Source: Edaphobacter aggregans
GTDB lineage: Bacteria; Acidobacteriota; Terriglobia; Terriglobales; Acidobacteriaceae
Assembly (NCBI RefSeq): GCF_003945235.1
Contig: NZ_RSDW01000001.1
Location: 2,370,001 to 2,402,000 of the forward strand
Direction of reading: 5' to 3'
Length of the DNA: 32,000 nucleotides
Positions 622 through 23,824 of the stretch are shown in pieces; position 1 is the stretch's first letter, and each line of letters opens with the position of its first letter. The position numbers were made by a program, and so were the translations under genes. The notes below the pieces were generated by a model. It had not been told where the DNA came from. It saw only the letters and a list, made by a program, of their open reading frames with translations, and made no database searches.

Positions 622-1218
622 TCAGTGTTTCCAATGGAGGTCAGGACCACGGAAGAGTACGCCAGCGCCGATGCGGAACTGGTTTTGTCGATTGCCCTGG
701 ACGTTTCTGAGTTCGGAGTAGAAGTAGTCTGCCTGCAGGGCGCGGATCCAGATGTGCCTGGATACGGAGATGTCGAGGCCACCGCCGACGGTGAGGGCGA
801 AGGAAGTGTCGTAGCTCGTTGGCAATTTGCCAACGGGTGCGGGAAAGTAGCCGTCGAAGCCGTGGACGCCTCCGAACAACGCCTGGCCAAAGGGCTGGAA
901 GCGGGTGTGGTTGGGCACGCGCATCCGCAGGCCGCCCATGCCGTAGAAAAGGCTCAGGCCCGTGTTGAAGTTGGGGAGGTTCCCTGTGGTGTGTCCCCCC
1001 ATTTCGGCGACGGCTGAAATGTTGCGCCACACGGGCACGGAGATGCCACCGTGGCCCCCGCTCATCCAGAAGCATCCGCAGCCTCCCACAGGAGCGTTGG
1101 CACGCATCTCACTATAGACGGCGTAGGCGTCCAGGGTGTTCGATGGCTTCTGGGCCATAGCTGCCAGAGAGAGCGACAACAGCAGCGCGTAGGCGAAGAC
1201 TTGCGTCAGCTTATTCAT
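622..1218 (-). CDS. Small outer-membrane beta-barrel protein (8-strand OmpX/OmpW/OmpA-TM-like class), paralogue A, with a CGC motif
   Basis: Track ORF 622..1380 trimmed to the internal ATG at comp 1216-1218; the longer form would overlap the giant gene's 3' end. The junction reads GAA TAG GAGGAGCG ATG, so the SD abuts the upstream stop. Product is 198 aa. Sec signal MNKLTQVFAYALLLSLSLAAMA/Q is followed by about 8 amphipathic Gly/aromatic-rich strands: FWMSGGHGGISVPVW, LSLFYGMGGLRMRV, FQPFGQALFGGVHGF, FALTVGGGLDISVS, IWIRALQADYFY, NQFRIGAGVLFR. Roughly three quarters of residues are identical by eye to the 6619..7206 product. Confidence 0.85.
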   Translation of the reverse strand: MNKLTQVFAYALLLSLSLAAMAQKPSNTLDAYAVYSEMRANAPVGGCGCFWMSGGHGGISVPVWRNISAVAEMGGHTTGNLPNFNTGLSLFYGMGGLRMRVPNHTRFQPFGQALFGGVHGFDGYFPAPVGKLPTSYDTSFALTVGGGLDISVSRHIWIRALQADYFYSELRNVQGNRQNQFRIGAGVLFRGPDLHWKH

Positions 1219-1226
1219 CGCTCCTC

Positions 1227-4200
1227 CTATTCCACAATCAGCGTTACGGTAGTGTTGTGAACCAAGTTGCCGCTGGTTGCGGTGATGGTAATAACATAGG
1301 ACTGCTGCGTCTGGTTGAAGTAGCCGCCGGTTCCACAGCCAGCGATTGCTCCAAACGATATCAGCGCCAGCAGCAGCCACAAAAGCGCGCCAGGTCGTCC
1401 GCGTGCTCTTCTCAGTAGCGCGAAGGGTACTAGCAGCGTCGCAAATACCAGTGGCGTGCGAGAGCTCCGGTCGAGTGTGGCATTCTGTTTTGGAACGTTG
1501 ACGGTCATGGTCGATTGGACGCCGTCAGCTCCCGGTATTACAGGATTAGGACTGAAGGTGTAGCTTGCTCCCGCGGGTAGTCCCGACGCGCTCAGCGTTA
1601 CCGGACTGTTGTATGGAAGATTCAGATCAGGGATCTTGATTGCAAAGTTAGCAGCCCCCCCAGGCGGGACCGTCTGCGGCGGCGTGGGGCTTATGACGCC
1701 GAAGTCCGGCGCGAGGATAGTCACACTGACCAACGCGAACGGCGTTATTGTTGTGAAGTTTGTATCACCGCTATATGAAGCCGTGAGCGTGCGTTCTCCA
1801 ATAGGTAGCGTGGTGGTAATCAGCGTCGCCGTGCCATTGACGATCGCCACGGTGCCGAACGCCGTGCCGCCGTCGTAGAAGGTAATGGTCCCGGTTGCGC
1901 CTGCATTGACCATTGCCGTCAGCGTTACCGGATTACCCTGCACAGTTTGGCTTGGTGACGCAGTCAAAGTGACGAAAGTGCTCGCCTTGGTGATCGTCAG
2001 GGTGCCGTTCACTGCACGGGTGATGTAGTTTGCAAGTGCCGATCCGGTAGCGGAGGGGACGATGGGATACGTTCCCGGAGGAGAGTTGGTAGTCGCGATC
2101 GTAGATGCCGAGAAAGTAAAGGTGTCGTTGAGGACGGCACCCGTGATTGTTCCGGTAAAGGCTGGATTTGCCTCCCCAAAGACGCGCGAAGCATTGTTCG
2201 CAGACAGCGCCAGTAGGGCAGGAGTCACCGTCACGGCAAAGTTGACGGCTTGGCTAACTCCGGCTGTCATGGCAGTTGCAACAAAATCTCCAACATGTGT
2301 TCCGGTTACTATTACGCTGGCCTGTCCGCTGCCGTTAGTTGTTACGGTGGCGCTCGGCGAGAAGGTTAGGCCTGCTCCCGCGAAGGTCACCGTGGCCCCT
2401 GCAACCGGATTCCCAATGGCATTCGCGACCATAACAACCAGAGCCTGCGCGAAGGCCGTTCCACGGACAGCAGACTGGGCGTTGCCACCCACCAACTCGA
2501 TAGTGGTTGGCAGACCGGTAACAATGCTTACCGCAACGGGGCTGCTCGAGCTAACCCCGTTATTTGGGTCTCCAGAATAAGCAGCGATGATGTTGTGGGT
2601 TCCCAAACTCAGGGAACTGGTCGAAAAGGTAGCCAGCGCATTCGCATCGATGCCTACTGTCCCGAGTATTGTCGTTCCATCATAGAAGATAACTGTGCCC
2701 GTCCGGGCGGGCACGCCTGCGGATATGGGTGGAGCTACCTCCGCCGTAAGGACGACCGGTTGGCCCTGCAACTGCGGGTTCACATCAGCGGTAACGGTAG
2801 TTGTCGTTGACAGTGGAGCGATCAGGAAGAGATACGCCGTAAGGTTGCCTATCTCCGGCGAGTTTCCACCACCATTCCCACCATTAGTGTTGTGGCCGCC
2901 CTCGTTACCGTATGAGGCGTAGACGTAGAGCGTGTGCAGTCCAACCTGTTGTGGCTGGCTGAGATTAACAGTGAAGCTTGCTGGGTTTGTTCCACTTGAA
3001 CTCGTCATCGTTGCAAGATTCGATGGGTTCGCGCCGTCCACCTCGTAGTACACCTGCGTCGGTGGTGGATTGGTTACGGTGTGGCCGCTATATACACTCG
3101 TGCTGCTGAACACACTATTCACATTCACCGTGAAGCTAGGCGTGCTGTTAGCTGTCTGGAAGATATTTGTCGTCGAGATGGTCAACGGATCGACCACCCC
3201 GGCGATGGTTGTGGTCAGTGGCACGGTCTGATGTCCGTCCACATCGATTACCGCCACGCTGCCAGGGTTTGAGGGACCGGGTGAGAGATTTGTATAGATT
3301 TTGTTGATCGCAGGGTACAACAACACCTCCTGAGGACACGACCCATTTGCAGCGTTGGAACAATTCGTTGTTAGTGCGTTTCCCACAACCGGTACTGTGC
3401 TCGTGACAATGTTGCTTGCTCCATCAATAACCATCATGTTTCGGCTGTTGAAGTTCTTGACATAGACATTGTTGGTGATTGGGTTTACCGCGATCCCCCA
3501 GGGAAAACTTCCCGAACTCGACGTGTTTATTTGGGTCGGGCTATTGGTCACTCCATCGAGAACGGTCACGCTTCCGCCCTGAGGGAAAGGTAGACCGGAG
3601 TTTGAGTTGGAGACATAGATCTTATTTGTCTGCTGGTTTATTGCTATCTCCCGGGGGAAAATGCCTGCTATCGGGTTGGCGATGACCGTGTCAATGGTTC
3701 CGTCGATCACCGAAATTGTGCCGGGAATGCTGCTGTTGTTAAAAGTCGTATTGGCGACATAGATCCTGTTCGTTGCAGGATTCACTGCTATTCCCTGTGG
3801 GCCGGTTCCAACCGTCATCGTGCTCGTGACAGAGTTGCCCGCACCATTTATCACTGAAACGGTGTTGTCGGAAAAATTAGAGACGTAGATTTTGTTGGTT
3901 GCTGCGTTCACCGCGATGCCAGAGGGTGAGAAACCCACGGTTACCGTGGCAGCGATGGTCTCGGTTGTTTCGTCGATCACCGAAACGGTGTTGCCGTTAG
4001 TTAGCGGAGAGAGTGAGATAAAGGGATGGGCGACATAAACCTTCCCTGTCACCGAGTTTGCCGCTACTGCTTGAGGGTAAGGCCCCACAGTCAAGGTGTT
4101 TATGACAGAATCGCTCGCTGAGTCGATCACCGAAACGGTGCCGTCTCCAAAGTTGGTGACGTATACCCTGTTCGTCACTGGATCGACGGCGGCCAAAACA

Positions 4201-5498
4201 GGTTGCGAACCGACACTCACCGTCGCAGTAACGGTATTCGTCGCTACATCAATCGCTGTCACGGTGTCGCTGTCGGTATTGGCGGTATAAATCTTGTTGG
4301 TCACTGGGTTCAACACGACAGTTTGAGGAGAGTCCCCCGTAGGTACAGGAGACGTCGAGATCGGCGCATTGATCGCACCGTCGATCACCGATACGGTACC
4401 GGGGACAGAAGTGTAGACCCTATTGGTCACCGGGTTCGCCGCCACGATCAGGACGCTGCTTCCGGTTCCCACCGCCGCCACGGTAACAGTAGCGTTTGTT
4501 GATCCGTCGATCACAGTTACGGAAGCATCAGAAGGATTGCTGCCACCGGTAAAAGTGAAATTGCCCACATAGATCTTGTTGGTTACCGGGTTCACCGCCA
4601 ACGTATAGGGAAAGGTGCCCCCCATCGTCAGAGTGCTCGTCGTGTAATTGTTCGTTCCATCGATCACAGTAACGGTGTTGTTCGGGCTGCCAGCAAAGTT
4701 GAGTACGTAGGCCTTGTTGGTTACCGGGTTCACGACCACCATGGCGGGTACGGTTCCCACCGTTGGATGTGCGATAGCCACGTTGGTCGTTCCGTCGAAC
4801 ACCGTCAGGGTTCCAGGGCTGGCGACGTAGAACTGGTTGGTCACCGGGTTCACCGCCACCGATTGGGGGGCCCCTGATACCGCCGCCGCGGTGGGCGTAT
4901 TGCTCGCTCCATCGATCACCGTCACGTTTCCCGCGCCGGTGACGGCATTGGCTACATAGACCTTATTGGTCACCGGGTTTACTGCTATCGCGTATGGGCG
5001 ATTCCCGGTTGTAGGCACGGTAGCCGTCACGTTGTTGGTGGCGCCGTCGATCACAGTCACGTTGTTGCTGTCGAGGTTGGCGACGTAGATTTTGTTGGTC
5101 AGGGGATTCACCACGACGTTAAGGGGGGTAGTTCCCACAGGCACCGTGGCGGTAACACTATCGCTTGCACCGTCGATCACCGTTACGGTGTTGTCGGTCG
5201 TGTCGGTAACATAAATCTTGTTGGTCACCGGATTCACTGCCGCCGTAGTGGGATTAGTTCCCGCAGTCACCGCCTTTGTTACATTCGTGACACCGTTGAT
5301 GACGTTGACCGTGTGAAGAGCACCTCTGCTGGGAACGTAGATCTTGTTGGTCACTGGGTTCACGGCCACCGAAAGCCCTCCACCGGTGGTAGGCACAGCG
5401 ATTTGAGCCCTAAGTACCGTAGAAGCAGCGAACACACTCAACAACAGTAAGAGCCGATTGAGAACAGGGCGGCAGCGAAGAACGAGGGACGGCACCAT
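1227..5498 (-). CDS. Giant secreted YVTN beta-propeller repeat / Ig-like / MBG-domain protein with an unusual C-terminal membrane tail (1423 aa)
   Basis: Uninterrupted 1423-codon ORF. GAGGAGG SD (comp 5506-5512) lies 7 nt before the ATG. Sec-type signal LLLLLSVFAASTVLRAQ/IAV. About 16 repeats with core NPVTNKIYV...TVTVIDG (YVTN-family 40-residue beta-propeller repeat type). These are followed by several Ig-like repeats (pattern PVVLTAEV...IFYDGTTILGT...LGTHNIIAAYSGD). One MBG-type domain (LSANNASRVFGEANPAFTGTITGAVLNDTF...YPIVPSATGSALANYITRAVNGTLTITKA). Then a terminal Ig-like domain interrupted by two hydrophobic helices (see findings). Confidence 0.92.
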   Translation of the reverse strand: MVPSLVLRCRPVLNRLLLLLSVFAASTVLRAQIAVPTTGGGLSVAVNPVTNKIYVPSRGALHTVNVINGVTNVTKAVTAGTNPTTAAVNPVTNKIYVTDTTDNTVTVIDGASDSVTATVPVGTTPLNVVVNPLTNKIYVANLDSNNVTVIDGATNNVTATVPTTGNRPYAIAVNPVTNKVYVANAVTGAGNVTVIDGASNTPTAAAVSGAPQSVAVNPVTNQFYVASPGTLTVFDGTTNVAIAHPTVGTVPAMVVVNPVTNKAYVLNFAGSPNNTVTVIDGTNNYTTSTLTMGGTFPYTLAVNPVTNKIYVGNFTFTGGSNPSDASVTVIDGSTNATVTVAAVGTGSSVLIVAANPVTNRVYTSVPGTVSVIDGAINAPISTSPVPTGDSPQTVVLNPVTNKIYTANTDSDTVTAIDVATNTVTATVSVGSQPVLAAVDPVTNRVYVTNFGDGTVSVIDSASDSVINTLTVGPYPQAVAANSVTGKVYVAHPFISLSPLTNGNTVSVIDETTETIAATVTVGFSPSGIAVNAATNKIYVSNFSDNTVSVINGAGNSVTSTMTVGTGPQGIAVNPATNRIYVANTTFNNSSIPGTISVIDGTIDTVIANPIAGIFPREIAINQQTNKIYVSNSNSGLPFPQGGSVTVLDGVTNSPTQINTSSSGSFPWGIAVNPITNNVYVKNFNSRNMMVIDGASNIVTSTVPVVGNALTTNCSNAANGSCPQEVLLYPAINKIYTNLSPGPSNPGSVAVIDVDGHQTVPLTTTIAGVVDPLTISTTNIFQTANSTPSFTVNVNSVFSSTSVYSGHTVTNPPPTQVYYEVDGANPSNLATMTSSSGTNPASFTVNLSQPQQVGLHTLYVYASYGNEGGHNTNGGNGGGNSPEIGNLTAYLFLIAPLSTTTTVTADVNPQLQGQPVVLTAEVAPPISAGVPARTGTVIFYDGTTILGTVGIDANALATFSTSSLSLGTHNIIAAYSGDPNNGVSSSSPVAVSIVTGLPTTIELVGGNAQSAVRGTAFAQALVVMVANAIGNPVAGATVTFAGAGLTFSPSATVTTNGSGQASVIVTGTHVGDFVATAMTAGVSQAVNFAVTVTPALLALSANNASRVFGEANPAFTGTITGAVLNDTFTFSASTIATTNSPPGTYPIVPSATGSALANYITRAVNGTLTITKASTFVTLTASPSQTVQGNPVTLTAMVNAGATGTITFYDGGTAFGTVAIVNGTATLITTTLPIGERTLTASYSGDTNFTTITPFALVSVTILAPDFGVISPTPPQTVPPGGAANFAIKIPDLNLPYNSPVTLSASGLPAGASYTFSPNPVIPGADGVQSTMTVNVPKQNATLDRSSRTPLVFATLLVPFALLRRARGRPGALLWLLLALISFGAIAGCGTGGYFNQTQQSYVITITATSGNLVHNTTVTLIVE
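3290..5370 (-). repeat. Array of about 16 in-frame YVTN-type beta-propeller repeats (period roughly 125-130 nt)
   Basis: The motif GTGAACCCGGTGACCAAC-like (V-N-P-V-T-N) recurs on the coding strand near 5350, 5230, 5100, 4970, 4845, 4725, 4580, 4430, 4305, 4180, 4050, 3900, 3775, 3640, 3480 and 3300. The protein shows repeated NP[VLA]TN[KR][IV]YV ... VTVID units. Boundaries are approximate. Confidence 0.8.
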
Positions 5499-6180
5499 TG
5501 GGAGACCTCCTCAACGCATTTGTCTGGGAATAAGGGTGCAGTCCGACCGAGGTGGTGTATCTCCATCGTCATATCCGTTCCGGTTGAGAGCCAGAACTGC
5601 AAGGACACACCGTCGCGCAAGATCAAGGAACCGAAGTTGGCACGCGGCGAAGACTCACTCCCGCCTGCCAGTGCTCAGCACTTTACATGCAAGATAGTCG
5701 AGTTGTCACGCACTGTGTCCAAATTCGAACTTGGTTCGGAGTTCTATAAACAAAAGTCGGCGCTGGAGATTTAGCCATCAATACGAGCGCCCCGTTTGAG
5801 GCTTCAGCATTCCTCGGATCGCGGCCAATTGCTCGTTTGTTCCAAATGTAGGTAGTCTGCCTACGTCGCGTCGAGTTCTAAATTGAAAAATAGGCTGGGG
5901 ACGGGGCGGTTCTGAATGCCAAAGCCAAACCGAATTTGCTGGCAGCTTCAGCGATGTTTAGAAAGTAGGGTTAGGACGTCCCGTCATCGCATTCGCTTAC
6001 CTGACGAGGATTCGACGCAAACCGCCTCTGCTGCTTGGTCAGAAACACCTGAAGTTGCAAAAAAACGATTATTGGAGAACTGCGAGGGATTCGGCTAATC
6101 AAAATCGAGCGCAATCTGAATAACTTAGAGAAATCTATCAATACGTTAGAGAGCGGAAAACAACCCGACGCAACGCTTAT

Positions 6181-6210
6181 TGGACCCGTAATGGACCCAC
6201 AGTTGGACCC
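6181..6210. promoter_or_regulatory. Three phased direct repeats TGGACCC (spacing 11 and 12 bp); candidate transcription-factor site
   Basis: TGGACCCgtaaTGGACCCacagtTGGACCC. Copies start at 6181, 6192 and 6204, inside the gene-free spacer between the two cassettes. Function is unproven. Confidence 0.3.
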
Positions 6211-6618
6211 ACGCTGGCGCACGCGATTGACAACGCGGCACGAACGGCAACCAGCTAGGGTTACCTAAGCACTACGTCATCTTGACTGGCCTTGACTCGC
6301 AATGACCTTCAAGTGCGTACGCTTGAAGTTCCGATAATCCGTTTCTAGGAATTACAAATTCACTTGTCCGAGAAGCCGACATTACGGGCCAAGTGACGAA
6401 AAGAGCGTTTCCCGGTACTAATCCGTAGTGCGGGTTTCTACTCATGTTCAATGAGTGCTAAGTCATGTTCTCATCAACTGACAATTCTGGGTGATTTGGC
6501 AACCGTTTGCGCCTCCTTAGGGATTACGATTACCAATCGGCGAGAACATCTGCCCGGAGATTCGTGATGCAGGTATGGCTCCGCGATCCTTGAAATAATT
6601 GTCGACCAGATCGCCTTG

Positions 6619-7206
6619 CTACTTCCTGCTGCCACGGAAGAGAATCCCTGCCCCGATGCGCAACTGGTTCTGGTTGTCTCCCTGCAAGTTGCGTAGCGAG
6701 GTGTAGTTGTAGTCGGCCTTCAGCGCACGTATCCAGATATGCCTTGAGATAGCCACATCCAGGCCTCCGCCGATGGCCATGGAATATGAAGTATCGTAAC
6801 TGGTCGGCAATTTCCCCACCCGTGCCGGGAAGTAGCTGTCGAAGCCGTGGACACCGCCGAACAACGCCTGAGCGAAGGGTTGGAACCGTGTGTGATTGGG
6901 CCAGCGCATGCGAACCCCACCCATACCGGAGACCAGGCTCAGGCCGGCATTGAAGTTGGGGATATTGCCCGTGTGATGGCCGGCTACTTCCGCCAAGACC
7001 GAAAAGTTCCTCCATACCGGATACGAGATTTCACCCGTGCCGCCGGACATCCAGAAGCAGCCGCAGCCGCCTACCGGAGCGTTGGCGCGCAGTTCGCTGA
7101 ACGTCACCGATGCGTCGATGGTGTTGGCTGGTTTCTGTTGCGCTACCACTGCTGGGGCGAGCGATAGCAGCAACGGGTAGACGAAGATGCGTAGGCGTCG
7201 GTTCAT
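6619..7206 (-). CDS. Small outer-membrane beta-barrel protein, paralogue B, with a CGC motif
   Basis: Track ORF 6619..7368 trimmed to the ATG at comp 7204-7206. The junction to the upstream giant gene (GAA TAG GAGGAGCG ATG AA) is identical to cassette A. Signal MNRRLRIFVYPLLLSLAPAVVA/QQ. It has the same strand pattern and the same ANAPVGGCGCFWMSGG segment as paralogue A. Confidence 0.85.
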   Translation of the reverse strand: MNRRLRIFVYPLLLSLAPAVVAQQKPANTIDASVTFSELRANAPVGGCGCFWMSGGTGEISYPVWRNFSVLAEVAGHHTGNIPNFNAGLSLVSGMGGVRMRWPNHTRFQPFAQALFGGVHGFDSYFPARVGKLPTSYDTSYSMAIGGGLDVAISRHIWIRALKADYNYTSLRNLQGDNQNQLRIGAGILFRGSRK

Positions 7207-7214
7207 CGCTCCTC

Positions 7215-10200
7215 CTATTCGACAGTCAGGGTTACGGTTGTGCTGCGAATCAGAGTTCCGCTTGTGGCCGTCACGGTGATCGTGTAGGTCTGTTCGGTCT
7301 GCGAGAAGTAGCCGCCCTCTCCGCATCCCGACACAGCGCCGAGCGAGACCAGCGCCGCCAGCATCCATATCAGCAGCTTCTGTGGTCGCCTGCGATATCG
7401 CTTCAGACGGGCAAACGGCAACAACAGCAACGCGAACGCGACAGGTCCGAGGCGACGGCTGCGCGAAGCCATATGGCTTTGCGGAGGAACGCTAACGGTA
7501 AACGTCGTATTGGCTCCCGATGCTCCCGGTGTGACTGTGGCGGGGTTGAAGGTGTAGGTCGCGCCCGGTGGCAGGTTCGTCGCGCTCATCGTCACAGCAT
7601 TGGTGAACGACCCATTCATCGAACTGATGACGATGGTGAAGTTCGCCGAAGCTCCCGGTGGGATGAGCTGCCGTCCCGTGCTCGAGGCCACGGTAAAGTC
7701 TGGCGGCGGCGGGGTGACCACCAGTGTGACCGGCGGTGAGGTGGCCGGCGCGAAGTTCGCGTCGCCGCTGTAGATTGCCGTGATGATGTGCGTCCCTGGA
7801 GCGAGCGTCGTCACCAGCGTCACGGTTATGCCGTCCGTCCTCCCGGTGTTGGTTGGGACCGGCACGGTTCCGAGCACGGTTGTGCCATCATCAAAGGTCA
7901 CGGTTCCAGTGGCCCCGGCCGGCACCGTCGCGGTCAGTGTCACCGAGCTGCCTCCCACTGACGGGCCCGTCGGCGGTGTCACAATTATGTTGTCTATCGT
8001 CAGAATTCCGTTCACGAAGGCGAAGCCGTAGTTCGTCGCAGACAACGTGCCCTGCGTCACCATGATCGGATAGCTGCCAACCGGGGAGGCCGTCGTTGCC
8101 GTGGTCGATACAGCCGCTGCTCCCGAGACCACGGTAGAGGTATCGCCGTTGACGAAGCCGGTGATTGTCGTCGTGAACGGCGGATTCGCCAGACCAACCA
8201 CTCGCGAGGCATGGTTCGCTGTGACGGTGAGGGTCGCCTTGGTCACGGTCAGGATTCCGTTCACGAAGATGAAGCTGTAGTTTTTCGCAGCCAGCGTCCC
8301 CTGCGTTGCCGTGATCGGATAGGCGCCGACCGGGGAAGCCACTGTTGCCGTCGTCGATACAGCAGCCGCACCCGAGACTACGGCAGGGATATCGTCGTTG
8401 AGGAAGCCGGTGATTGTCGTCGTCAAGGGTGGATTCGGCTGACCATACACCCGCGAGGCGTTGTTCGGGGTCACGGTTAGCGTCGCCGGGGTCACGGTCA
8501 GTGTGCCGTTCACGAAGGCGAAGCTGTAGTTTGTAGCAGCGAGCGTTCCCTGCCCGATCGCGATGGGATAGCTGCCTACAGGTGAACTCTCGGTCGCCGT
8601 GGTCACCACCGTGGGCGCGCCGGTGACTGAGCTGGCTGGCGTGTCGCCGCCGACGAAGCCGGTGATCGTATAGGTCAGCGCTCCGTTATGCCCACTGAAC
8701 ATGCGTGTACTGTTGTTTGCGGTTACCGTCAGGATCGCGGGAGTGACCAGTTGCAGCAGTACGTCCGAAGTCGAAGCCGCGTGCGATCCGTCTCCGCTGT
8801 ATGCTGCTGTAATCGAATGTGTTCCCTGCATCAGCGCACTGGTCGCGAAGACCGCAACTGCTCCCGCAAGGGTAACGGGGGCACCCAGATTCGTTGCACC
8901 ATCCTTGAATTGAATGGTGCCTGTAGCTCCGCTGACCACGGTCGCAGTGAACGTCACTGTCTGGCCGAAGTCAGAGGGGTTATCCGAAGAGACGAGAGAA
9001 ACTGCGATCGGCCCTGGACTTACCGTCAGGAAAACCGGAGCACTCAAGCTACCGTCGCGGTTCGAGTCGCCGATAAAAACTGCCGTCAGCCTATGTGGCG
9101 ATCCCGCCACAGTGAAAGTGGACACTGTGAGGCTCGCTTCGCCCGTGGACGAGAGCGGGACTGCTCCTAACAACGTGGTGCCATCGTAGAAGTTCATGGT
9201 GCCCGTCGCTGTCGCGCCGCCTAACGTAAATGGGGTCACATTGGCTGTCAAAGTCACGGGCGTTCCGAACACGATCGTATCTGCCGTCGAAAGCACCAGT
9301 GTTGTCACTGTGGTCACCGGCGTAGCCGTCAATGGAATTGTTGGCGAGGTGCTACCACCAAAGTTCGCGTCGCCCGGATAGATTGCCTCGACATTGCGCG
9401 TCCCGCTACCTGGGATGCTTACCCCAGGTAACACCGCTGTCGTTGTTTGCGTCACCTGGTTCAGCAAGATGCTGATGTCATTAGCGCCATAATTTGGCAC
9501 CGCCAGATCCGCGATACCGTCGCCGTCGAAGTCGCCAACGGCTACTGCGTAGGGGAGATGGCCAACCGTGATCGGCGATCCCGAAGCTAGCGCGAAGCCG
9601 CCACTGCCGTTCCCCAGGAATATGCTCACGTCATCAGCGTCGAGATTCGCCACCGCCAGATCGACAATGCCGTCACCATTGAAGTCCCCCACGGCCACGT
9701 CGTTAGGACCGGCACCCGTCGCGACCGGCGATCCCGGGGCTGGCGAGAAGCCGCCATGACCGTCCCCCAACAATATGTTCATGTCATTCGAGAGATAATT
9801 CGTCACCGCCAGATCCGCGATGCCATCACCGTTAAAGTCTCCCACGGCGACGGATTGGGGATGATTACCCGCCGTAACGGGCGATCCTGGGGCCGGCAAG
9901 AAGCCACCACTGCCGTTTCCTAGCAATATGCTCACATTGGCGGAGGTCTGGTTTGTCACCGCCAGATCGGCGATGCCATCTCCATTGAAGTCACCCACGG
10001 TAATAGCGTAGGGACGAGTACCCACCGGGACTGTCGACCCCGAAGCCGAGAAGCCGCCACTACCGTTCCCTAGCAATATAGTCACGTCATTAGAACCCCA
10101 ATTTGCCACGGCTAGATCCGCAATGCCGTCGCCATTGAAGTCCCCTATGGCCACACCAAAGGGATCGGTGCCCACCGCAATCGGTGATCCCACAGCTGGC

Positions 10201-13200
10201 GAGAAGCCGCCACTACCGTTCCCTAACAATATGCTCACGTTAGTAGAGCCCGAATTTGCCACGGCCAAGTCCGCGATGCCGTCGCTATTGAAGTCCGCTA
10301 CGACCACACCAAAGGGGCTGGGGCCAACCGCGATTGGAGATCCTAGAGCTGGCGAGAAGCCGCCATGGCCGTTCCCCAGCAGTATGGTCAAAGTATTATC
10401 GGTATCATTTGCCACCACCAGATCCGCGATGCCATCGCCATTGAAGTCTCCAATGGCTGCAGCCACTGGTAAGTTGCCCACTGCGATTGGAGATCCCATA
10501 GCATTCGCAAAGCCGTGCCCCAGCGTTGGGGTCCCTGACGTCGCCGTTCCCAGAACACTATTGCCGTTTGTGGTATCGATGAAAGATACGCTGCCCGTGG
10601 GGCCTAGCGTAGCGTTCCCGGTACCCACGACGGTTGCTATCAGCGTGTAGTTCCCTGGAGTGCCGCTGGAAGTAATGGCTGTCGTCGTCGGGAAGGTTGC
10701 CAGTGGCGACACTGTTACTGCTTGTGCGGAGGAAATGCTCGCCGTATATGCTTTTGTCCCCGCAAAGACCGCAACATAGTTATGACTGCCGACACTCGGA
10801 ATAAATCTCAGTGCTGCAGTCCCTGCGCTCGTCAACTGCGCTGTACCCACGACAGCCAGGCCTGTGCAAGACGGCGCCGTTGCATCGCAGAATGTCACCA
10901 AGCCCGGATGGACGGCTGCACCACTGGTCGTCACCGTCGCAGTCAGGGTCATCACTGTCTGTGCCGCTAACGGTGAACCTGGCGACACTGCCAGCGAGGT
11001 CGCCGTCGGAAGCGAAGTAACCTGCTGTGTCAGCACATCCGAAGTCATCGGAAGATGACTTCCATCCCCGCTGTAGACCGCGGTTATCGGACGCGCTCCT
11101 GGCGTCAACGAGCTGCTTGTGTAAGCAGCAACTCCCGCCGCAAGAGTCACAGGTCCGCCCAGGTTCGCTGCACCATCCCTGAATTGAATAGTGCCTGTGG
11201 CTCCGCTGGGCACGGTCGCCGTAAACGTCACCGACTGACCAAAACTGGAAGGATTATCCGAAGAGACAAGGGAAACTGTGGGGGACGATGGACTTACCGT
11301 TAGCGAAACCGGACCGCTTGTGCTGGAGAGGAAGTGCGTGTCACCTTCATAGAGCGCCGTCAACGTGTGAGTACCTACCGCGAAGCCAGGAATCCCTCCG
11401 CTTGGCACCGTCAGGCCCGCTTCGCCAGCGGATGAGGTCGGCACTGTTCCTAACAACGTGGCTCCATCGTAGAAGCTCATGGTGCCCGTCGCAGTCAAGC
11501 TGCCTGCCGTGTATGGGGCCACAGCGGCCGTCAAAATCACCGGCATTCCGAACGCAATCGTGTTTGACGTCGAAAGCACCAGCGTGGTCGCCGTTGCTAC
11601 ACGCGAGCCCGTCAGTGGAATTGTTGGCGAGGTGCTGTCAGCGAAGTGCGTATCTCCGGGATAGGTTGCCTCGACAGGGCGAATCCCGCTGCCTGGTATG
11701 CTCACCCCGGGTAACACTGCCGTCGCCGTCTGCGTCACTTGATTCAGCAATATGCTTACGTCATTCGAGTCGAAATTTGGCACAGCCAGATCCGCAATGC
11801 CATCCCCATTGAAGTCACCAATCGCTACGGCATAGGGCCAAGTGCCCACCGCAACCGGCGATCCCGGAGCCGACGCGAAGCCGCCACTGCCGTTCCCCAC
11901 CAAGATGCTGACATTGTTGGATTCGAAATTTGGCACAGCTAAATCCGCGATGCCATCCCCATTGAAGTCACCAACGACTACATCATTGGGAAAACTGCCC
12001 ACAGCGACAGGCGATCCCGTAGCTGGTGCGAAGCCACCACTGCCGTTCCCCAGCAAGATGCTCACAGTATCCGCAGTTACATTTGCCACCGCCAGGTCCG
12101 CATGGCCATCTCCATTGAAGTCACCAACTTCAACAGCAACGGGAAAAGTGCCCACCGCGACCGGCGATCCCGGAGCTTGCGTGAAGCCGCCTCCACCGTC
12201 GCCCAGCAAGATGCTCACATTACCATCTCTTTGATTTGTTACCGCCAGATCCGCGCGGCCATCCCCATTGAAGTCGCCAACGGCCACACCATAGGCCCCT
12301 CCACCCACCGCGACCGGCGATCCCGAAGCTTGTGTGAAGCCGCCAGTGCCGTCCCCCAACAAAATGCTCACATCGTTACTGGAGAAATTTGTCACCGCCA
12401 GGTCTGCGATGCCGTCCCCATTGAAGTCCCCCGCCGCCACAAGGTAGGGATTGGTGCCCACAGCGACCGGCGATCCCGGAGCCGACGAGAAACCGCCACT
12501 GCCGTTCCCCAGCAATATGGTTACCGTGCCAGAGTCCGTATTTACCACCGCCAAATCCGCGTGGCCGTCACCATTGAAATCCCCAACGGCCAGACCATAA
12601 GGCCCGGCACCAACCGTAATCGGTGATCCCGTAGCTGGTGCGAAGCCGCCACTGCCGTTCCCCAGCAATATGCTTATAGTAGAGTCCGAATTCGACACCG
12701 CCAGGTCAGCGTGGCCGTCGCCATTAAAGTCCCCAACGGCTGCACCTACGGGCAGCTCGCCCACCTCGATTGGAGATCCCGTAGCATTTACAAAGCGGTG
12801 CCCCAGCGTTGGGGATCCCAGCGTCGCCGTTCCCACATTATTGCTGTTTGTAGTGTCGATGAACGATACGCTGCCTGTCGGGCCTAGCGTAGCGTTACCG
12901 GTACCCACGACGGTTGCCGTCAGCATGTAGGCCCCGACACTGCCGCTGGAAGTAATGGCGGTCGTCGTCGGGAAGGTTGCCGGTGGGGATACCGTTAATG
13001 CTTGCGCTGAGGAAGTGCTCGTCGCATACGCTGTTGTCCCCGCAAAGATCGCAATATAGTTATGACTGCCGATGGCCGGAGTAAACCGCAGCAACGCAGT
13101 CCCTGCGCTCGTCAATTGCGCTGTACCCACGACGGCCAGGCCCACGCAAGGCGGCGCCGTTGCCTCGCAGAATGTCACCAGCCCCGGATGGACAGCTGTA

Positions 13201-13388
13201 CCACTGGCCGTCACCGTCGCCATCAGGGTCATCACTGTCTGCGCCGCCAAAGGTGAACTCGGCGACACTGTCAGCGAGCTCGCCGTAGTAGTTTGCGCCC
13301 GCATTATCGTTCCGGGCAGCTGGACGGTCACCAGGAGAAGAACCACCTGTATCACACGGCGTAACTCACAGGCACAGAAAAGCTTCAT
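7215..13388 (-). CDS. Giant secreted FG-GAP/VCBS beta-propeller (2 x 7 blades) / Ig-like / 3x MBG protein with the same C-terminal membrane tail (about 2057 aa)
   Basis: The track ORF runs 7215..13418. I prefer the ATG at comp 13386-13388 (MKLFCACELRRVIQVVLLLVTVQLPGTIMRAQ/TTT) because AGGAGG (comp 13395-13400) lies 6 nt upstream. There are two blocks of seven GDFNGDG[IH]ADLAV...ILLGNGSGGF blades (integrin-alpha FG-GAP type). These are flanked by Ig-like repeats, then three tandem MBG-type domains, an Ig-like domain, and a terminal split Ig-like domain with a TM hairpin. Confidence 0.92.
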   Translation of the reverse strand: MKLFCACELRRVIQVVLLLVTVQLPGTIMRAQTTTASSLTVSPSSPLAAQTVMTLMATVTASGTAVHPGLVTFCEATAPPCVGLAVVGTAQLTSAGTALLRFTPAIGSHNYIAIFAGTTAYATSTSSAQALTVSPPATFPTTTAITSSGSVGAYMLTATVVGTGNATLGPTGSVSFIDTTNSNNVGTATLGSPTLGHRFVNATGSPIEVGELPVGAAVGDFNGDGHADLAVSNSDSTISILLGNGSGGFAPATGSPITVGAGPYGLAVGDFNGDGHADLAVVNTDSGTVTILLGNGSGGFSSAPGSPVAVGTNPYLVAAGDFNGDGIADLAVTNFSSNDVSILLGDGTGGFTQASGSPVAVGGGAYGVAVGDFNGDGRADLAVTNQRDGNVSILLGDGGGGFTQAPGSPVAVGTFPVAVEVGDFNGDGHADLAVANVTADTVSILLGNGSGGFAPATGSPVAVGSFPNDVVVGDFNGDGIADLAVPNFESNNVSILVGNGSGGFASAPGSPVAVGTWPYAVAIGDFNGDGIADLAVPNFDSNDVSILLNQVTQTATAVLPGVSIPGSGIRPVEATYPGDTHFADSTSPTIPLTGSRVATATTLVLSTSNTIAFGMPVILTAAVAPYTAGSLTATGTMSFYDGATLLGTVPTSSAGEAGLTVPSGGIPGFAVGTHTLTALYEGDTHFLSSTSGPVSLTVSPSSPTVSLVSSDNPSSFGQSVTFTATVPSGATGTIQFRDGAANLGGPVTLAAGVAAYTSSSLTPGARPITAVYSGDGSHLPMTSDVLTQQVTSLPTATSLAVSPGSPLAAQTVMTLTATVTTSGAAVHPGLVTFCDATAPSCTGLAVVGTAQLTSAGTAALRFIPSVGSHNYVAVFAGTKAYTASISSAQAVTVSPLATFPTTTAITSSGTPGNYTLIATVVGTGNATLGPTGSVSFIDTTNGNSVLGTATSGTPTLGHGFANAMGSPIAVGNLPVAAAIGDFNGDGIADLVVANDTDNTLTILLGNGHGGFSPALGSPIAVGPSPFGVVVADFNSDGIADLAVANSGSTNVSILLGNGSGGFSPAVGSPIAVGTDPFGVAIGDFNGDGIADLAVANWGSNDVTILLGNGSGGFSASGSTVPVGTRPYAITVGDFNGDGIADLAVTNQTSANVSILLGNGSGGFLPAPGSPVTAGNHPQSVAVGDFNGDGIADLAVTNYLSNDMNILLGDGHGGFSPAPGSPVATGAGPNDVAVGDFNGDGIVDLAVANLDADDVSIFLGNGSGGFALASGSPITVGHLPYAVAVGDFDGDGIADLAVPNYGANDISILLNQVTQTTTAVLPGVSIPGSGTRNVEAIYPGDANFGGSTSPTIPLTATPVTTVTTLVLSTADTIVFGTPVTLTANVTPFTLGGATATGTMNFYDGTTLLGAVPLSSTGEASLTVSTFTVAGSPHRLTAVFIGDSNRDGSLSAPVFLTVSPGPIAVSLVSSDNPSDFGQTVTFTATVVSGATGTIQFKDGATNLGAPVTLAGAVAVFATSALMQGTHSITAAYSGDGSHAASTSDVLLQLVTPAILTVTANNSTRMFSGHNGALTYTITGFVGGDTPASSVTGAPTVVTTATESSPVGSYPIAIGQGTLAATNYSFAFVNGTLTVTPATLTVTPNNASRVYGQPNPPLTTTITGFLNDDIPAVVSGAAAVSTTATVASPVGAYPITATQGTLAAKNYSFIFVNGILTVTKATLTVTANHASRVVGLANPPFTTTITGFVNGDTSTVVSGAAAVSTTATTASPVGSYPIMVTQGTLSATNYGFAFVNGILTIDNIIVTPPTGPSVGGSSVTLTATVPAGATGTVTFDDGTTVLGTVPVPTNTGRTDGITVTLVTTLAPGTHIITAIYSGDANFAPATSPPVTLVVTPPPPDFTVASSTGRQLIPPGASANFTIVISSMNGSFTNAVTMSATNLPPGATYTFNPATVTPGASGANTTFTVSVPPQSHMASRSRRLGPVAFALLLLPFARLKRYRRRPQKLLIWMLAALVSLGAVSGCGEGGYFSQTEQTYTITVTATSGTLIRSTTVTLTVE
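7990..8740 (-). repeat. Three tandem 249-bp repeats encoding MBG-type domains
   Basis: The marker CCGTTCACGAAG(G/A) recurs at 8008, 8257 and 8506, exactly 249 bp apart. The protein units are ...LTVT(A/P)NN(A/S)(T/S)R...TTTITGF...SPVG(S/A)YPI...TNY(S/G)F(A/I)FVNG(T/I)LT(V/I). Confidence 0.85.
9456..10510 (-). repeat. FG-GAP blade array B (7 units, about 153 nt / 51 aa period)
   Basis: Seven [GA]DF[ND][GS]DGI[AV]DL[AV]VAN... units are read in the protein. ATTGAAGTC markers lie 153 nt apart, for example at 10287 and 10440. Confidence 0.85.
11740..12790 (-). repeat. FG-GAP blade array A (7 units)
   Basis: Seven GDFNGDG[HIR]ADLAV... units are read in the protein. This is the counterpart of array B, one super-module upstream. 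Confidence 0.85.
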
Positions 13389-13666: not shown

Positions 13667-13708
13667 GTAAAAAGAGAACAGGCCATAGCACTCATTGAGT
13701 GCTATGGC
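13667..13708 (-). terminator. Strong intrinsic-terminator-like hairpin (12-bp perfect stem, 3-nt loop, U-rich tail on the minus strand)
   Basis: GCCATAGCACTC (13682-13693) / att / GAGTGCTATGGC (13697-13708). On the minus strand the stem is followed by CTGTTCTCTTTTTAC. No annotated gene ends nearby; the closest is the IS110 transposase, which ends at 14209. Confidence 0.6.
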
Positions 13709-14208: not shown

Positions 14209-15312
14209 CTATGCGGCTGCCGGCAGTGTAGCCCGACTGCTTGGCCGTAGTGGCACATAAACCTCTCTGCTCACCCATAGTCGATGCAGCAGGACGGCCA
14301 GCTTACGCGCGACCGCGATCACTGCGCGTTTCTTCCCGCGCTTGCCTCCGTGCTCAGCCAGCTTCATGCCCCATCGGCGCAGGTCGCTGTCGACTCCCCA
14401 GGGACCGAGTACGTGGTGGGCAGCCTGCACCAGAAGTGCTCGTAGATACGGATCGCCCTCTTTGCTGATGTGCATCTGCGGCTCGCTCTGTCCCGAGTTA
14501 CGCCTTCCAGGCTGGAGACCTACGTAGCAGGCTGCATCCCGGCTCTTGCGAAAACGGTGTGGATCTTCCAGCGTCAACATGTACGTGAGGGCGATTAGCG
14601 TTCCCACTCCCTTGATCTGCTTCAACTGCTCTGCTTCGGGATATCTGTTCCGCGCCATGGACTCAAGCAGCTGGTCGTACTCGCAGATCCGTTCGCTGAC
14701 CGACTCTATCTCTCTCATCATCGGTTCCAGTGCACGCTTCAACTCCGGACTCAGATCCTGGGCCGCCTGCGGCTTCATCCCTGGTGCGTTGCATCCGCGG
14801 AGCCGCTCCCCGTAGGACTTCGTCAGACCGCGCGCCGCGTTGACCAACATCGTCCGTGTGCGGACCGGAGCGGCCCGCGCCCGGATCACCGTAAGATCCG
14901 CTTGTGCCTCGGCGCTCCGATGCTTCACTGGGCACAGCAGCTGCGGATCGATCCTTACGAGTCGCGCAAGTGTCCTAGCGTCGAGCCGATCATCCTTGCG
15001 CCTGCTCTCCCCGATTAGCCGCACGCTGCGCGCGTGGGCCACGATCGCCTCATGACCGAGTTCGCTGAGCAACCGACTTACCCACGGTGAATGCGTTCCG
15101 GTCTCCAGTGCGATACGGCTCCGAGGCATCACTCCGAAAACCTCTTTTATCGCCTTGGGCGTCGTGCTCACCTTCTGCTCCAGCAGCACGTCACCTGCAT
15201 CATCCAACACGCAATAAAAGCTCGCCCTGTCGCCCAAATCCAGACCGACGGTCAGGCGTCCGTCCTGCTTGTTGAGTGTCTCCTGCATCATCGTGGTGGT
15301 AAGCTTTTTCAT
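14209..15312 (-). CDS. IS110-family (DEDD) transposase/recombinase, 367 aa
   Basis: N-terminal RuvC-like DEDD region (VGLDLGDRASFYCVLD ... IALETGTHSPW ... KDDRLDARTLARL). C-terminal Transposase_20-type region (LKQIKGVGTLIALTYMLTLEDPHRFRKSRDAACYVGLQPGRRNSGQ...ISKEGDPYLRALLVQAA). GAGGAG SD directly upstream. Confidence 0.92.
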   Translation of the reverse strand: MKKLTTTMMQETLNKQDGRLTVGLDLGDRASFYCVLDDAGDVLLEQKVSTTPKAIKEVFGVMPRSRIALETGTHSPWVSRLLSELGHEAIVAHARSVRLIGESRRKDDRLDARTLARLVRIDPQLLCPVKHRSAEAQADLTVIRARAAPVRTRTMLVNAARGLTKSYGERLRGCNAPGMKPQAAQDLSPELKRALEPMMREIESVSERICEYDQLLESMARNRYPEAEQLKQIKGVGTLIALTYMLTLEDPHRFRKSRDAACYVGLQPGRRNSGQSEPQMHISKEGDPYLRALLVQAAHHVLGPWGVDSDLRRWGMKLAEHGGKRGKKRAVIAVARKLAVLLHRLWVSREVYVPLRPSSRATLPAAA

Positions 15313-21965: not shown

Positions 21966-22323
21966 TTTGATATAGCCTTCGGTAGATTCAGCACCCGGAC
22001 AAGCTAGCTTGATCGTCTTAAGTAGTTGTTCGAGGGCTGCCCAAGGAGTCCGACACCTCCTTTGAGACCTATTGCACAGGCATGTATCTGCGCAGAATGG
22101 CTGAGGAAGACGGGATGTAGGCTCTCGGAACCTTTATCTCACGCAACAGCAAGGGCAATACAGCGTGGGCCTGGGGCAAATATCAGGCGTTTCTGCCTTC
22201 CTGTTTCGAAGGAACGTCCCTTACAAATGCAGCCTTGCAGTTCGCTTTTGAACAATCGCTCCATAGACAGTTGACCGCTTAGGGCGGCGATGTTGTTATC
22301 CTCAAATTCCCACCGGAGGCACC

Positions 22324-23774: not shown

Positions 23775-23824
23775 CGACCTCACCCACCCCAAGGGTGCGC
23801 TCTACCAGGCTGAGCCACGTCCCG
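23748..23824 (-). tRNA. tRNA-Pro (anticodon GGG), 77 nt, CCA encoded
   Basis: Hand-folded cloverleaf: CGGGACG-TG-GCTC-AGCCTGGTA-GAGC-G-CACCC-TTGGGGT-GGGTG-AGGTC-GCTAG-TTCGAAT-CTAGT-CGTCCCG-A-CCA. All stems pair, with one G-U in the T stem. U33 and G37 flank the GGG anticodon. Canonical GG in the D loop and TTCGAAT in the T loop. Confidence 0.93.

Follow-up and report, generated by a model that had tools for sequence, protein, structure and literature searches.

Why would two giant proteins with unrelated propeller passengers, encoded one after the other, share the same C-terminal tail, and why would each be followed by its own copy of a small outer-membrane barrel gene? The question is raised by a stretch of 32,000 nucleotides (nt) of Edaphobacter aggregans (Acidobacteriota, Acidobacteriaceae; NCBI RefSeq assembly GCF_003945235.1, contig NZ_RSDW01000001.1, positions 2,370,001 to 2,402,000), hereafter the window, in which two such gene pairs lie in succession. 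We find that the tail is already catalogued, as the NCBIfam family NF058595, that it contains a lipoprotein-type signal far from the N-terminus, and that tail and barrel genes adjoin one another across many genomes. That the pair is an operon and that its conserved part is a module is near certain. The fuller explanation, to which we give an even chance, is that of a portable two-gene envelope-anchoring operon in which a lipidated tail would dock on the co-expressed barrel.

Two gene pairs with one module and different passengers

All cassette genes lie on the minus strand of the window, and so do the gene features given below. Giant protein A (1423 amino acids (aa); 1227..5498) has, by its translation and by Pfam and NCBIfam domains, a Sec-type signal, YVTN/NHL repeats, two Big_3_5 domains, one MBG_2 domain and the tail, and is followed by barrel a (198 aa; 622..1218), with a signal peptide, a predicted 8-stranded outer-membrane β-barrel and the motifs CGCFWMxGG and HGFDxYFP. 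Giant protein B (2057 aa; 7215..13388) has a Sec-type signal, two duplicated blocks of seven FG-GAP blades each, eight Big_3_5 domains, three MBG_2 domains and the same kind of tail, and is followed by barrel b (195 aa; 6619..7206), again with a signal peptide and a predicted 8-stranded barrel. At junction A (1219..1229) a TAG stop overlaps a GGAGG Shine-Dalgarno sequence 8 nt ahead of the barrel ATG, a layout that recurs in other loci, and junction B (7207..7217), TAG GAGGAGCG, is the same: both read GAA TAG GAGGAGCG ATG AA, identical to the letter. An earlier note on this DNA, made from the letters alone, had described these four open reading frames (ORFs), their arrangement in two pairs of like architecture and the identical junction, and we recover each of them on re-reading the sequence.

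The two barrels share 72% identity across 192 aa, and the giants are homologous only over their C-terminal ~339 aa (A1085-1423 against B1709-2057, 50% identity), with scattered Big_3_5 repeat matches elsewhere. The proposal that stalk, tail, junction and barrel are conserved and that the passengers, with their different propellers, are unrelated is therefore borne out. BLASTN aligns 647-1379 with 6632-7367 (72% identity, offset about 5985-5988), a block made up of helix 2 of the tail, the terminal hairpin, the junction and the barrel, and 5' of this block the likeness between the cassettes is detectable in protein only. The offset of ~5988 in the earlier note was right, while the extent that it gave to the DNA similarity, 600-1720 versus 6600-7720, is longer than the one that BLASTN returns.

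Judging from their sequences, the N-termini of both giants look like Sec signals, ending in LRAQ in giant A (aa 1-32, ...STVLRAQ; 5403..5498) and in MRAQ in giant B (aa 1-32, ...GTIMRAQ; 13293..13388). The passengers that follow had been described as about 16 YVTN repeats in one protein and 2 x 7 FG-GAP blades in the other; the types stand, while a regular expression finds 14 core N-x-x-T-N-K-x-Y motifs in giant A rather than ~16. Giant B contains 13 GDFNGDG motifs and, by Pfam, 12-13 FG-GAP stretches, and its 2 x 7 blades result from an internal tandem duplication (aa 41-791 against 801-1549, 70% identity) of a ~750-aa block composed of Big_3_5, seven FG-GAP blades and a further Big_3_5. This duplication is recent.

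Passengers differ as widely among relatives. Among 35 tail-bearing ORFs, NHL repeats occur in 17, SBBP repeats in 15 and FG-GAP repeats in 4; Big_3_5 is present in 29 and MBG_2 in 12; ASH/HYDIN-type Ig domains occur in 5-6, a GH28 domain in one, and others carry Big_1, DUF7948 or DUF7933. The earlier idea of a portable, conserved module onto which different passengers have been grafted is well supported because the passengers are so varied.

A catalogued tail with an internal lipoprotein-type signal

What, then, is the tail? The NCBIfam model NF058595, 'invert_tail' (lipo-invert putative C-terminal anchoring domain), matches tail B at 53.0 bits (E 3.8e-14) and tail A at 50.7 bits (E 1.9e-13) against a curated cutoff of 37 bits, and it is matched by 18/18 sampled homologues, above threshold where scores were checked. 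The match takes in both helices, the basic loop between them, the Cys and the terminal hairpin; in both giants its last residue is number 163 of the tail's 164, at the extreme C-terminus. It is reported for isolated 164- or 300-aa C-termini (48-53 bits) and not for the full-length 1423- and 2057-aa proteins. This miss was reproduced and is a property of scanning long repetitive proteins, and the giants are therefore likely unannotated for the tail in routine pipelines. Pfam gives only a weak DUF5980 signal, in some relatives. The earlier note had suggested an undescribed system, a claim that it would have given up if the tail matched a known sorting domain; the tail turns out to be named, and in this respect the claim falls. 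NF058595 is, however, a curated name marked 'putative' for the tail alone and not a characterised mechanism. In the literature searched we found no paper that mentions 'lipo-invert'; the term is also absent from the preprint on myxosortase and MYXO-CTERM in which sorting signals of a related kind, with a Cys, are introduced.

The order of elements is fixed across 137 unique tails, drawn from 155 loci: ~75 residues of β-strands, a variable linker, helix 1, a basic cluster, helix 2, a Cys and a hairpin. In giant A the N-terminal five-strand part of the split Ig-like domain is placed at aa 1264-1335 (1494..1709) by alignment to the model of tail B. It is followed by helix 1 (TPLVFATLLVPFALL; 1413..1457), a putative stop-transfer segment with a conserved Pro; by the basic cluster RRARGRPG (1389..1412), the n-region of the internal signal and a predicted cytoplasmic loop; and by helix 2 (1335..1388), which comprises the h-region and the lipobox I-A-G-C with Cys1388. 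The last 36 aa, made up of the Cys, the Gly-rich linker CGTGGYF and the terminal β-hairpin (1230..1337), would complete the Ig sandwich, as in the homologous tail B model. The corresponding parts of giant B are the N-terminal Ig part, aa 1896-1967 (7488..7703; AlphaFold2 strands and Foldseek), helix 1 (GPVAFALLLLPFARL; 7404..7448; AlphaFold2 helix, tail residues 87-104), the basic cluster KRYRRRPQK (7377..7403), helix 2 with the lipobox V-S-G-C and Cys2022 (7323..7376; AlphaFold2 helix, residues 110-127), and the 36-aa end with the Cys, the CGEGGYF linker and the hairpin (7218..7325; AlphaFold2 strands and NF058595).

It is the second helix that gives the tail its character. Over the 137 tails, helix 1 is a segment of ~15 hydrophobic residues with a conserved Pro (LLLP), the basic cluster or n-region has a median net charge of +5, and helix 2 is an uncharged or hydrophobic stretch of 17-20 aa that ends in [LVIM]-[TS]-G-C. 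The Cys is invariant (137/137), with L/V/I/M at -3 in 94%, G/A/S at -1 in 98% and Gly at +1 in 91%. A strict lipobox, [LVI][ASTVI][GAS]C, is present in 108/137 tails and a relaxed form in 122/137, and 114/137 match the PROSITE-type lipoprotein core, most of the others differing only by a Pro at -4. After the Cys come a Gly-rich G-G-[YF]-F stretch and the hairpin YTxTVTxTSG...TTVTLxV[EQ], and in all 137 tails the protein ends 34-43 aa beyond the Cys. By its sequence, helix 2 has all the properties of a type II (lipoprotein) signal peptide, though it is internal: the Cys stands at position 1388 among the 1423 residues of giant A and at position 2022 among the 2057 of giant B, and each giant has its separate Sec-type signal at the N-terminus.

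An AlphaFold2 model of tail B from an 87-sequence alignment (mean predicted local distance difference test score (pLDDT) 87.7, predicted TM-score (pTM) 0.70) places residues 4-73 and 140-163 as strands of one sandwich at pLDDT 96-98, including the hairpin strands 140-150 and 153-163 at about 98. The helices 87-104 and 110-127 are inserted between these strands at lower confidence. In Foldseek, Ig-like domains of ~100 residues align across all 164 columns of the tail, among them a sialidase linker domain, S-layer SbsC domains and 4lba (target TM-score 0.66). The tail is thus predicted to be a single Ig-like sandwich that is interrupted by a pair of helices. The earlier note had described a terminal Ig-like domain with a two-helix hydrophobic insert, and the model supports this description; what the note overlooked is the lipoprotein-type signal that ends at the lipobox Cys. 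Mean pairwise identity is highest in the module for the hairpin after the Cys (0.63), followed by the barrel (0.41), the N-terminal Ig part (0.39), the helices (0.33) and the stalk (0.26-0.30).

Two observations on the family were discarded. Apparently 'permuted' proteins that start with the lipoprotein signal and hairpin are an artefact of a first Met inside frameshifted or stop-to-stop ORFs, and a family size taken from 54,154 profile matches is dominated by generic Big_3_5 proteins, the profile having contained the Big_3_5 repeat of some members.

An unnamed barrel of the NspA/OmpX/OmpA class

The partner protein is poorly covered by family libraries. With PF13505 (OMP_b-brl), whose gathering threshold is 28.7 bits, barrel b passes at 34.2 bits and barrel a falls short at 24.4 bits; NCBIfam has no model for the barrel, its best match, OMP_myx_plus, lying far under that model's threshold, and a sequence-profile search of the PDB gave no match. 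AlphaFold2 predicts a signal helix and eight strands for barrel b (46 sequences; pLDDT 83.1, pTM 0.74), and the best Foldseek match of the model is NspA (1p4t; E 2e-8, target TM-score 0.80), followed by Ail, the OmpA transmembrane domain, OmpX and OmpW, with PagL also among the matches (E-values for NspA, Ail, OmpA and OmpX from 2e-8 to 7e-6). An 8-strand-class barrel is what the earlier note had supposed, and both the model and its structural neighbours agree with it. The cassette barrel resembles NspA, Ail, OmpX and the N-terminal domain of OmpA in fold, and barrel b does so in its PF13505 match; in those adhesins, however, the loops are variable, whereas in the cassette barrel they are short and highly conserved.

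Conservation is concentrated in a particular part of the molecule. Mean column identity among close relatives is 73%, and the motifs G-x-CGCFWM-x-GG, GPR, HGFxxxFP, GGGxD, LPN and QNxLR are kept across 121 unique sequences, down to 27% identity. In the predicted topology they fall at the L1/β2, β5/L3 and L4/β8 boundaries, mostly at loop-side strand ends, and loops hold more information than periplasmic turns (2.12 versus 1.75 bits). The canonical orientation of 8-stranded outer-membrane proteins (OMPs) puts the loops outside, and on that assumption the conserved face of the barrel is predicted to be its outer rim. The motifs are not universal. The CGC pair occurs in about 90% of barrels and is missing from 12/121, including several tail-linked clades; 7/12 of the CGC-less barrels are also without the HGF histidine (columns corresponding to residues 48, 50, 120 and 123 of barrel b). 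Many CGC-bearing barrels have R, K, E, N, I, M or Y in place of this His, and the neighbouring Asp is often S, N or G.

Two roles for these residues were considered and set aside. A Cys-His-Asp catalytic site is rejected because the residues lack universal conservation, and a disulfide between the tail Cys and the CGC pair is unlikely, as the tail Cys is invariant and CGC is missing in about 10% of linked barrels. We conclude that the barrel is a distinct, unnamed, tail-linked subfamily of the structural NspA/OmpX/OmpA class. It is no generic porin, in keeping with what had been proposed, since nearly every member of the subfamily that we found adjoins such a tail.

Linkage of tail and barrel across genomes

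Do the two genes belong together outside the window? A barrel-motif-seeded scan of 185,579 species genomes gave 75 loci, and a tail-motif-seeded scan of metagenomes gave 80, one of which lies on a contig that matches the window at 100% identity. These loci were found through motifs of the window's clade, so that the linkage rates given here apply to that clade, mainly Acidobacteriaceae, and fall in divergent tails. The barrel-seeded loci come nearly all from Acidobacteriaceae (Terriglobales), with a few metagenome-assembled genomes (MAGs) labelled Verrucomicrobia, and several genomes have 3-4 cassettes with one barrel per giant. Among the carriers of related cassettes are MAGs of Edaphobacter, Granulicella, Terracidiphilus and Silvibacterium.

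Seen from the barrel, a complete tail lies just upstream in about 64 of the 75 loci. Among the exceptions, the gene is frameshifted or cut short in L010, L021, L033 and L036, the locus meets a contig edge or has an incomplete barrel in L059 and L074, a different OMP lies upstream in L008, and L058 is ambiguous. Seen from the tail, a complete tail is followed by a barrel in 60/61 cases in the genome loci, and by a barrel within 400 nt in 69/79 of the metagenome loci with room downstream. Four divergent tails were examined singly: two have a barrel (L158, L159) and two have none (L156, L157). Adjacency in both directions, which the earlier note had set beforehand as a test, thus holds in well over 100 independent loci. 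The intergenic spacing is 7-16 nt in most of them, with a GGAG-type Shine-Dalgarno sequence at or over the stop, and the short junction seen in the window is thus conserved; wider gaps of 25-34 nt occur in some loci, and the clade that is most distant has 62-77 nt.

Decayed copies retain the same arrangement. In L004 (5699-5989) and L018 (about 5783-5989), which are deletion remnants, the giant has shrunk to an ORF of ~70-100 aa in which the signal peptide runs straight into the last tail strand (...LVHNTTATLTVE), L004 also keeping the first propeller motif, and both loci retain the junction and an intact barrel (at 6001).

No third gene, such as one for a sortase-like enzyme, is conserved in the cassette flanks, and the use of general lipoprotein machinery would fit with this. 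A 'conserved third gene' in 30 loci proved to be an antisense shadow ORF of the barrel gene, and the other large flank clusters were shadow or alternative-frame ORFs of the barrel or giant genes. TonB-dependent-like OMPs lie nearby in 9 loci, which is too sporadic to count.

Several individual loci deserve mention. The MAGs labelled Verrucomicrobia (L061, OY970344.1; L065; L072), one of them a 4.0-Mb chromosome-level assembly, have cassettes nearly identical to those of the Acidobacteriaceae loci L060 and L062-L064, as would result either from mislabelling or a binning error or from horizontal transfer. In the cultured Granulicella sp. 5B5 (CP046444.1; L159, 3001-4069), an intact CGC-type barrel stands directly after a 156-aa ORF, GOB94_00935, which is a degenerate tail that has kept the Ig N-part and the terminal hairpin and lost both helices and the Cys. 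On the chromosome of the isolate Tunturiibacter empetritectus M8UP27 (L036, 5666-6519), the tail gene is apparently frameshifted within helix 2: a 649-aa ORF stops 214 nt before the barrel, and a separate 79-aa ORF has the hairpin. Either a pseudogene or an error in sequencing may explain the break. At locus L002, the counterpart of the upstream cassette has a tail and is without a barrel.

A possible route to the envelope and its alternatives

How might such a pair of proteins work? In the reading that we favor, Sec would export the giant protein until helix 1 and the Arg/Lys cluster near its C-terminus halt translocation. Helix 2, acting as a lipoprotein-type signal, would then restart export of the last ~35 residues, and the exported hairpin, which would form the final two strands of the Ig sandwich begun before helix 1, would fold in the periplasm. 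Lgt and LspA would lipidate the invariant Cys and probably cut at it, and the passenger would be held through the lipid-bearing hairpin inside its own terminal Ig domain. Such an 'inverted' C-terminal lipoprotein anchor is presumably the meaning of the NCBIfam name. The barrel, whose start lies 8 nt past the giant's stop, would be made in step as a dedicated outer-membrane partner, most likely docking the lipidated tail by its outer-rim motifs; eight strands are too few for a channel that could pass a 150-200 kDa passenger. We lean towards the lipid processing of the tail, and hold the docking of the tail on the barrel to be somewhat doubtful. A bolder extension, which we consider rather unlikely, is that the lipo-invert tail and its private barrel form an unrecognised outer-membrane display route, in which the lipidated hairpin is clamped in the split Ig domain, much like the non-covalent tethering known from SEA and GAIN domains, the barrel sits around or against the Gly-rich linker in a one-to-one complex, and adhesin-like passengers of 1400-2000 aa are held on the cell surface with neither a sortase-like enzyme nor a known secretion barrel.

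Several points weigh against this anchoring scheme. An LspA cut alone would leave the passenger on the helix 1-helix 2 pair in the inner membrane, so that a second cut or an extraction would be needed, and neither the tail alignments nor the locus flanks contain a conserved motif or enzyme for a second cut. Helix 1, with ~15 uncharged residues, is short for a membrane span. If the passenger of 1400-2000 aa is exposed on the surface, its crossing of the outer membrane is unexplained. Some divergent tails have no adjacent barrel (L156, L157, L089, L104, L137, L138, L140), and the barrel is therefore not strictly needed in cis. Finally, the co-divergence of tail and barrel in a mirror-tree comparison is only moderate (Spearman 0.29-0.40), and is confounded by shared ancestry.

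Alternatively, the two helices could be a plain inner-membrane hairpin anchor, with no lipid and no cleavage, that leaves the giant periplasmic or spanning the periplasm and uses the barrel as the outer-membrane contact of a trans-envelope tether. Two hydrophobic helices with a strongly basic loop between them obey the positive-inside rule, the passenger would not be freed by LspA cleavage alone, no releasing protease is conserved nearby, and one barrel is retained per giant. We nevertheless judge this arrangement unlikely, for it gives no reason why all 137 tails should keep the Cys, in a canonical lipobox flanked by Gly at -1 and +1, nor why the hairpin after the helices should be the most conserved part; the conserved barrel residues, moreover, lie at the predicted extracellular rim and not at the periplasmic turns, and NHL, FG-GAP, MBG and Big_3 domains are typical of extracellular adhesin-like proteins. 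The tight linkage of a giant exoprotein gene to its own outer-membrane barrel gene, as in TpsA/TpsB, also brings to mind a miniature two-partner or type V-like export, in which the amphipathic C-terminal hairpin would insert beside or into the small barrel by β-augmentation and the hybrid, assembled by the β-barrel assembly machinery, would move or fix the passenger outside. The hairpin does alternate hydrophobic and Thr residues (YTITVTATSG...TTVTLTVE), and hairpin and barrel are both highly conserved. Yet AlphaFold2 sets the hairpin in a soluble Ig sandwich with pLDDT about 98, the 8-stranded barrel lacks a POTRA domain and matches no type V or Omp85 model, the last residue of the hairpin is Glu or Gln where outer-membrane β-signals usually have an aromatic one, and the lipobox stays unexplained; such export appears quite improbable. 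A fusion of giant and barrel by read-through or frameshift is excluded by a TGA three codons past the TAG and by 7-16-nt spacers that do not keep the frame.

The rim motifs of the barrel could instead suggest an outer-membrane enzyme of the PagP, PagL or OmpT kind, using the Cys-Gly-Cys, His and Asp of the rim for processing, transferring or acylating the lipidated tail. Within the window's clade the CGC, HGFD and LPN motifs look invariant and cluster at the outer rim, PagL is one of the Foldseek matches, and CGC and His are partly lost together (7/12). We think this very improbable, as CGC is absent in about 10% of tail-linked barrels and His and Asp are variable; each of the three being lost or replaced somewhere, the family has no universal catalytic set. 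Hardly any weight can be given to the last alternative, that a generic barrel, a small porin or an OmpA-like protein, lies beside large genes by chance. Its sole library match is indeed the generic PF13505, with barrel a under the cutoff, and relatives are labelled 'outer membrane immunogenic protein' by JGI, but incidental adjacency is contradicted by reciprocal linkage, which holds in well over 100 loci and for barrels of as little as 27% identity, by junctions kept at 7-16 nt, by the retention of one barrel per giant in multi-copy genomes and by the deletion remnants L004 and L018, which still keep junction and barrel.

Relation to known anchoring and secretion systems

The closest catalogued relative is NF058595 itself, to which both window tails and the sampled homologues correspond in score and in C-terminal position. 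That entry covers the tail alone; the barrel, the linkage, the split Ig fold and the lipobox statistics come from the present analysis. Among characterised systems, MYXO-CTERM also has an invariant Cys in a C-terminal signal; a dedicated protease cuts this signal, on which surface anchoring depends (PMC11980579). It resembles the lipo-invert tail in belonging to large surface-type proteins of a diderm bacterium and in being a tripartite C-terminal signal, made up of a motif, a membrane helix and an Arg-rich cytoplasmic stretch (PMC11980579; bioRxiv 10.1101/2023.06.07.544157), and its invariant Cys, too, is predicted to be lipidated and to give a C-terminal lipid anchor. In MYXO-CTERM, however, the Cys stands ahead of a lone helix that closes the protein, the CPBP protease MrtX cleaves, and a type II secretion system is invoked for surface delivery, whereas in lipo-invert proteins the Cys follows a second helix resembling a type II signal peptide and is followed by ~35 folded residues, and the linked gene encodes an 8-stranded barrel, with no sortase-like gene linked in the flanks. 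No MYXO-CTERM model matches the tails.

To the lipoprotein signal peptides handled by Lgt, LspA and Lnt, the likeness is that of an n-region of ~+5, an h-region and a lipobox [LVIM]-[TS]-G-C. The differences are that the lipo-invert signal lies inside the protein, behind a stop-transfer helix and 1370-2000 residues away from the N-terminus, that its h-region is long, at 17-20 residues, and that the 'mature lipoprotein' would be a hairpin of ~35 aa from a domain encoded mostly upstream. Complexes of an outer-membrane lipoprotein with a barrel are known, LptE-LptD being one. RcsF is a lipoprotein found in complex with OmpA, OmpC and OmpF, and for the flexible linker beside its lipidated Cys a path through the barrel or along it has been proposed (PMC7553776, PMC6529637). 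By analogy, this pairing of a lipoprotein with a barrel, which can be the 8-stranded OmpA, may have its counterpart here, where the tail Cys is followed by the Gly-rich linker C-G-x-G-G-[YF]-F. RcsF differs in being small and N-terminally anchored and in using abundant general porins, in contrast to the dedicated barrel with which the tail would make contact.

TpsA/TpsB and other type V systems likewise couple the gene of a giant, repeat-rich exoprotein to that of a dedicated barrel and carry diverse passengers. TpsB barrels have 16 strands and POTRA domains, and autotransporter barrels have 12 strands. The cassette barrel, in contrast, is predicted to have 8 strands in 195 aa and has no POTRA domain, and the putative recognition element is C-terminal with a lipobox rather than an N-terminal two-partner secretion (TPS) domain; no Autotransporter, ShlB, POTRA or TPS model of Pfam or NCBIfam is matched. 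Nor did we find a match to PEP-CTERM, at E <= 0.01 on the full-length giants or at E <= 10 on the tails, and the tail differs from PEP-CTERM/exosortase signals in that its basic cluster precedes a second helix and 35 more residues and in that no linked enzyme is conserved in the flanks. In neither giant do Pfam or NCBIfam models show the C-terminal domain of type IX secretion or the RTX repeats of type I secretion. The earlier impression that the giants lack the hallmarks of type I, type V and type IX secretion and of PEP-CTERM is upheld by these searches.

Surroundings of the cassettes

Barrel b and giant A are separated by a spacer of 1.1 kb (5499-6618), lower in G+C, without a notable ORF or Rfam match. 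Upstream of giant A there is one weak sigma-70-like match (5680-5709); scans for sigma-70 promoters and terminators gave fewer sites than shuffled controls and are uninformative. Directly upstream of giant B is an IS110-family transposase gene (14209-15312, minus strand), with a perfect hairpin of 12-bp stem between the two (13682-13708), and beyond the IS110 gene a giant OMP gene with CarboxypepD_reg and OMP_b-brl_4 domains (15749-19192). Further on, a large serine recombinase ORF (22290-23774, plus strand) runs with its 3' end into a tRNA gene (23751-23824, minus strand; 61 bits), and G+C at 19-24 kb is 0.50-0.53, against 0.58-0.62 nearby; this region looks like the edge of an integrated element. 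The metagenome contig that is 100% identical to the window (Ga0209060_10000153; L076) extends past the window's left edge. Downstream of barrel a it encodes an S-adenosylmethionine-dependent methyltransferase-like protein (5221-6081 of L076) and, ~2.5 kb further, a 161-aa protein (7580-8065) that resembles the type VI secretion protein Hcp, judged by eye.

Implications

How very large proteins are attached to the envelope is largely obscure in diderms beyond the model Proteobacteria. Acidobacteria are dominant in many soils and encode many such giants, and those that carry the lipo-invert tail are probably under-annotated. What is new here is not the tail as such: a two-gene system with a private barrel, a split Ig domain, a lipobox of this strength and such a diversity of passengers was not found in Pfam, NCBIfam or the literature searched. 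The name NF058595 becomes a processing signal that seemingly uses the universal lipoprotein machinery in inverted form, together with a dedicated minimal barrel that is unrepresented in Pfam and NCBIfam. The module is compact, at about 165 aa plus 195 aa, and might find use in the display of large passengers. If the anchoring scheme is true, the lipo-invert tail would form a new class beside the LPXTG, PEP-CTERM, GlyGly-CTERM and MYXO-CTERM C-terminal sorting signals, and the giants of Acidobacteria and their barrels would represent a new kind of lipoprotein-barrel complex.

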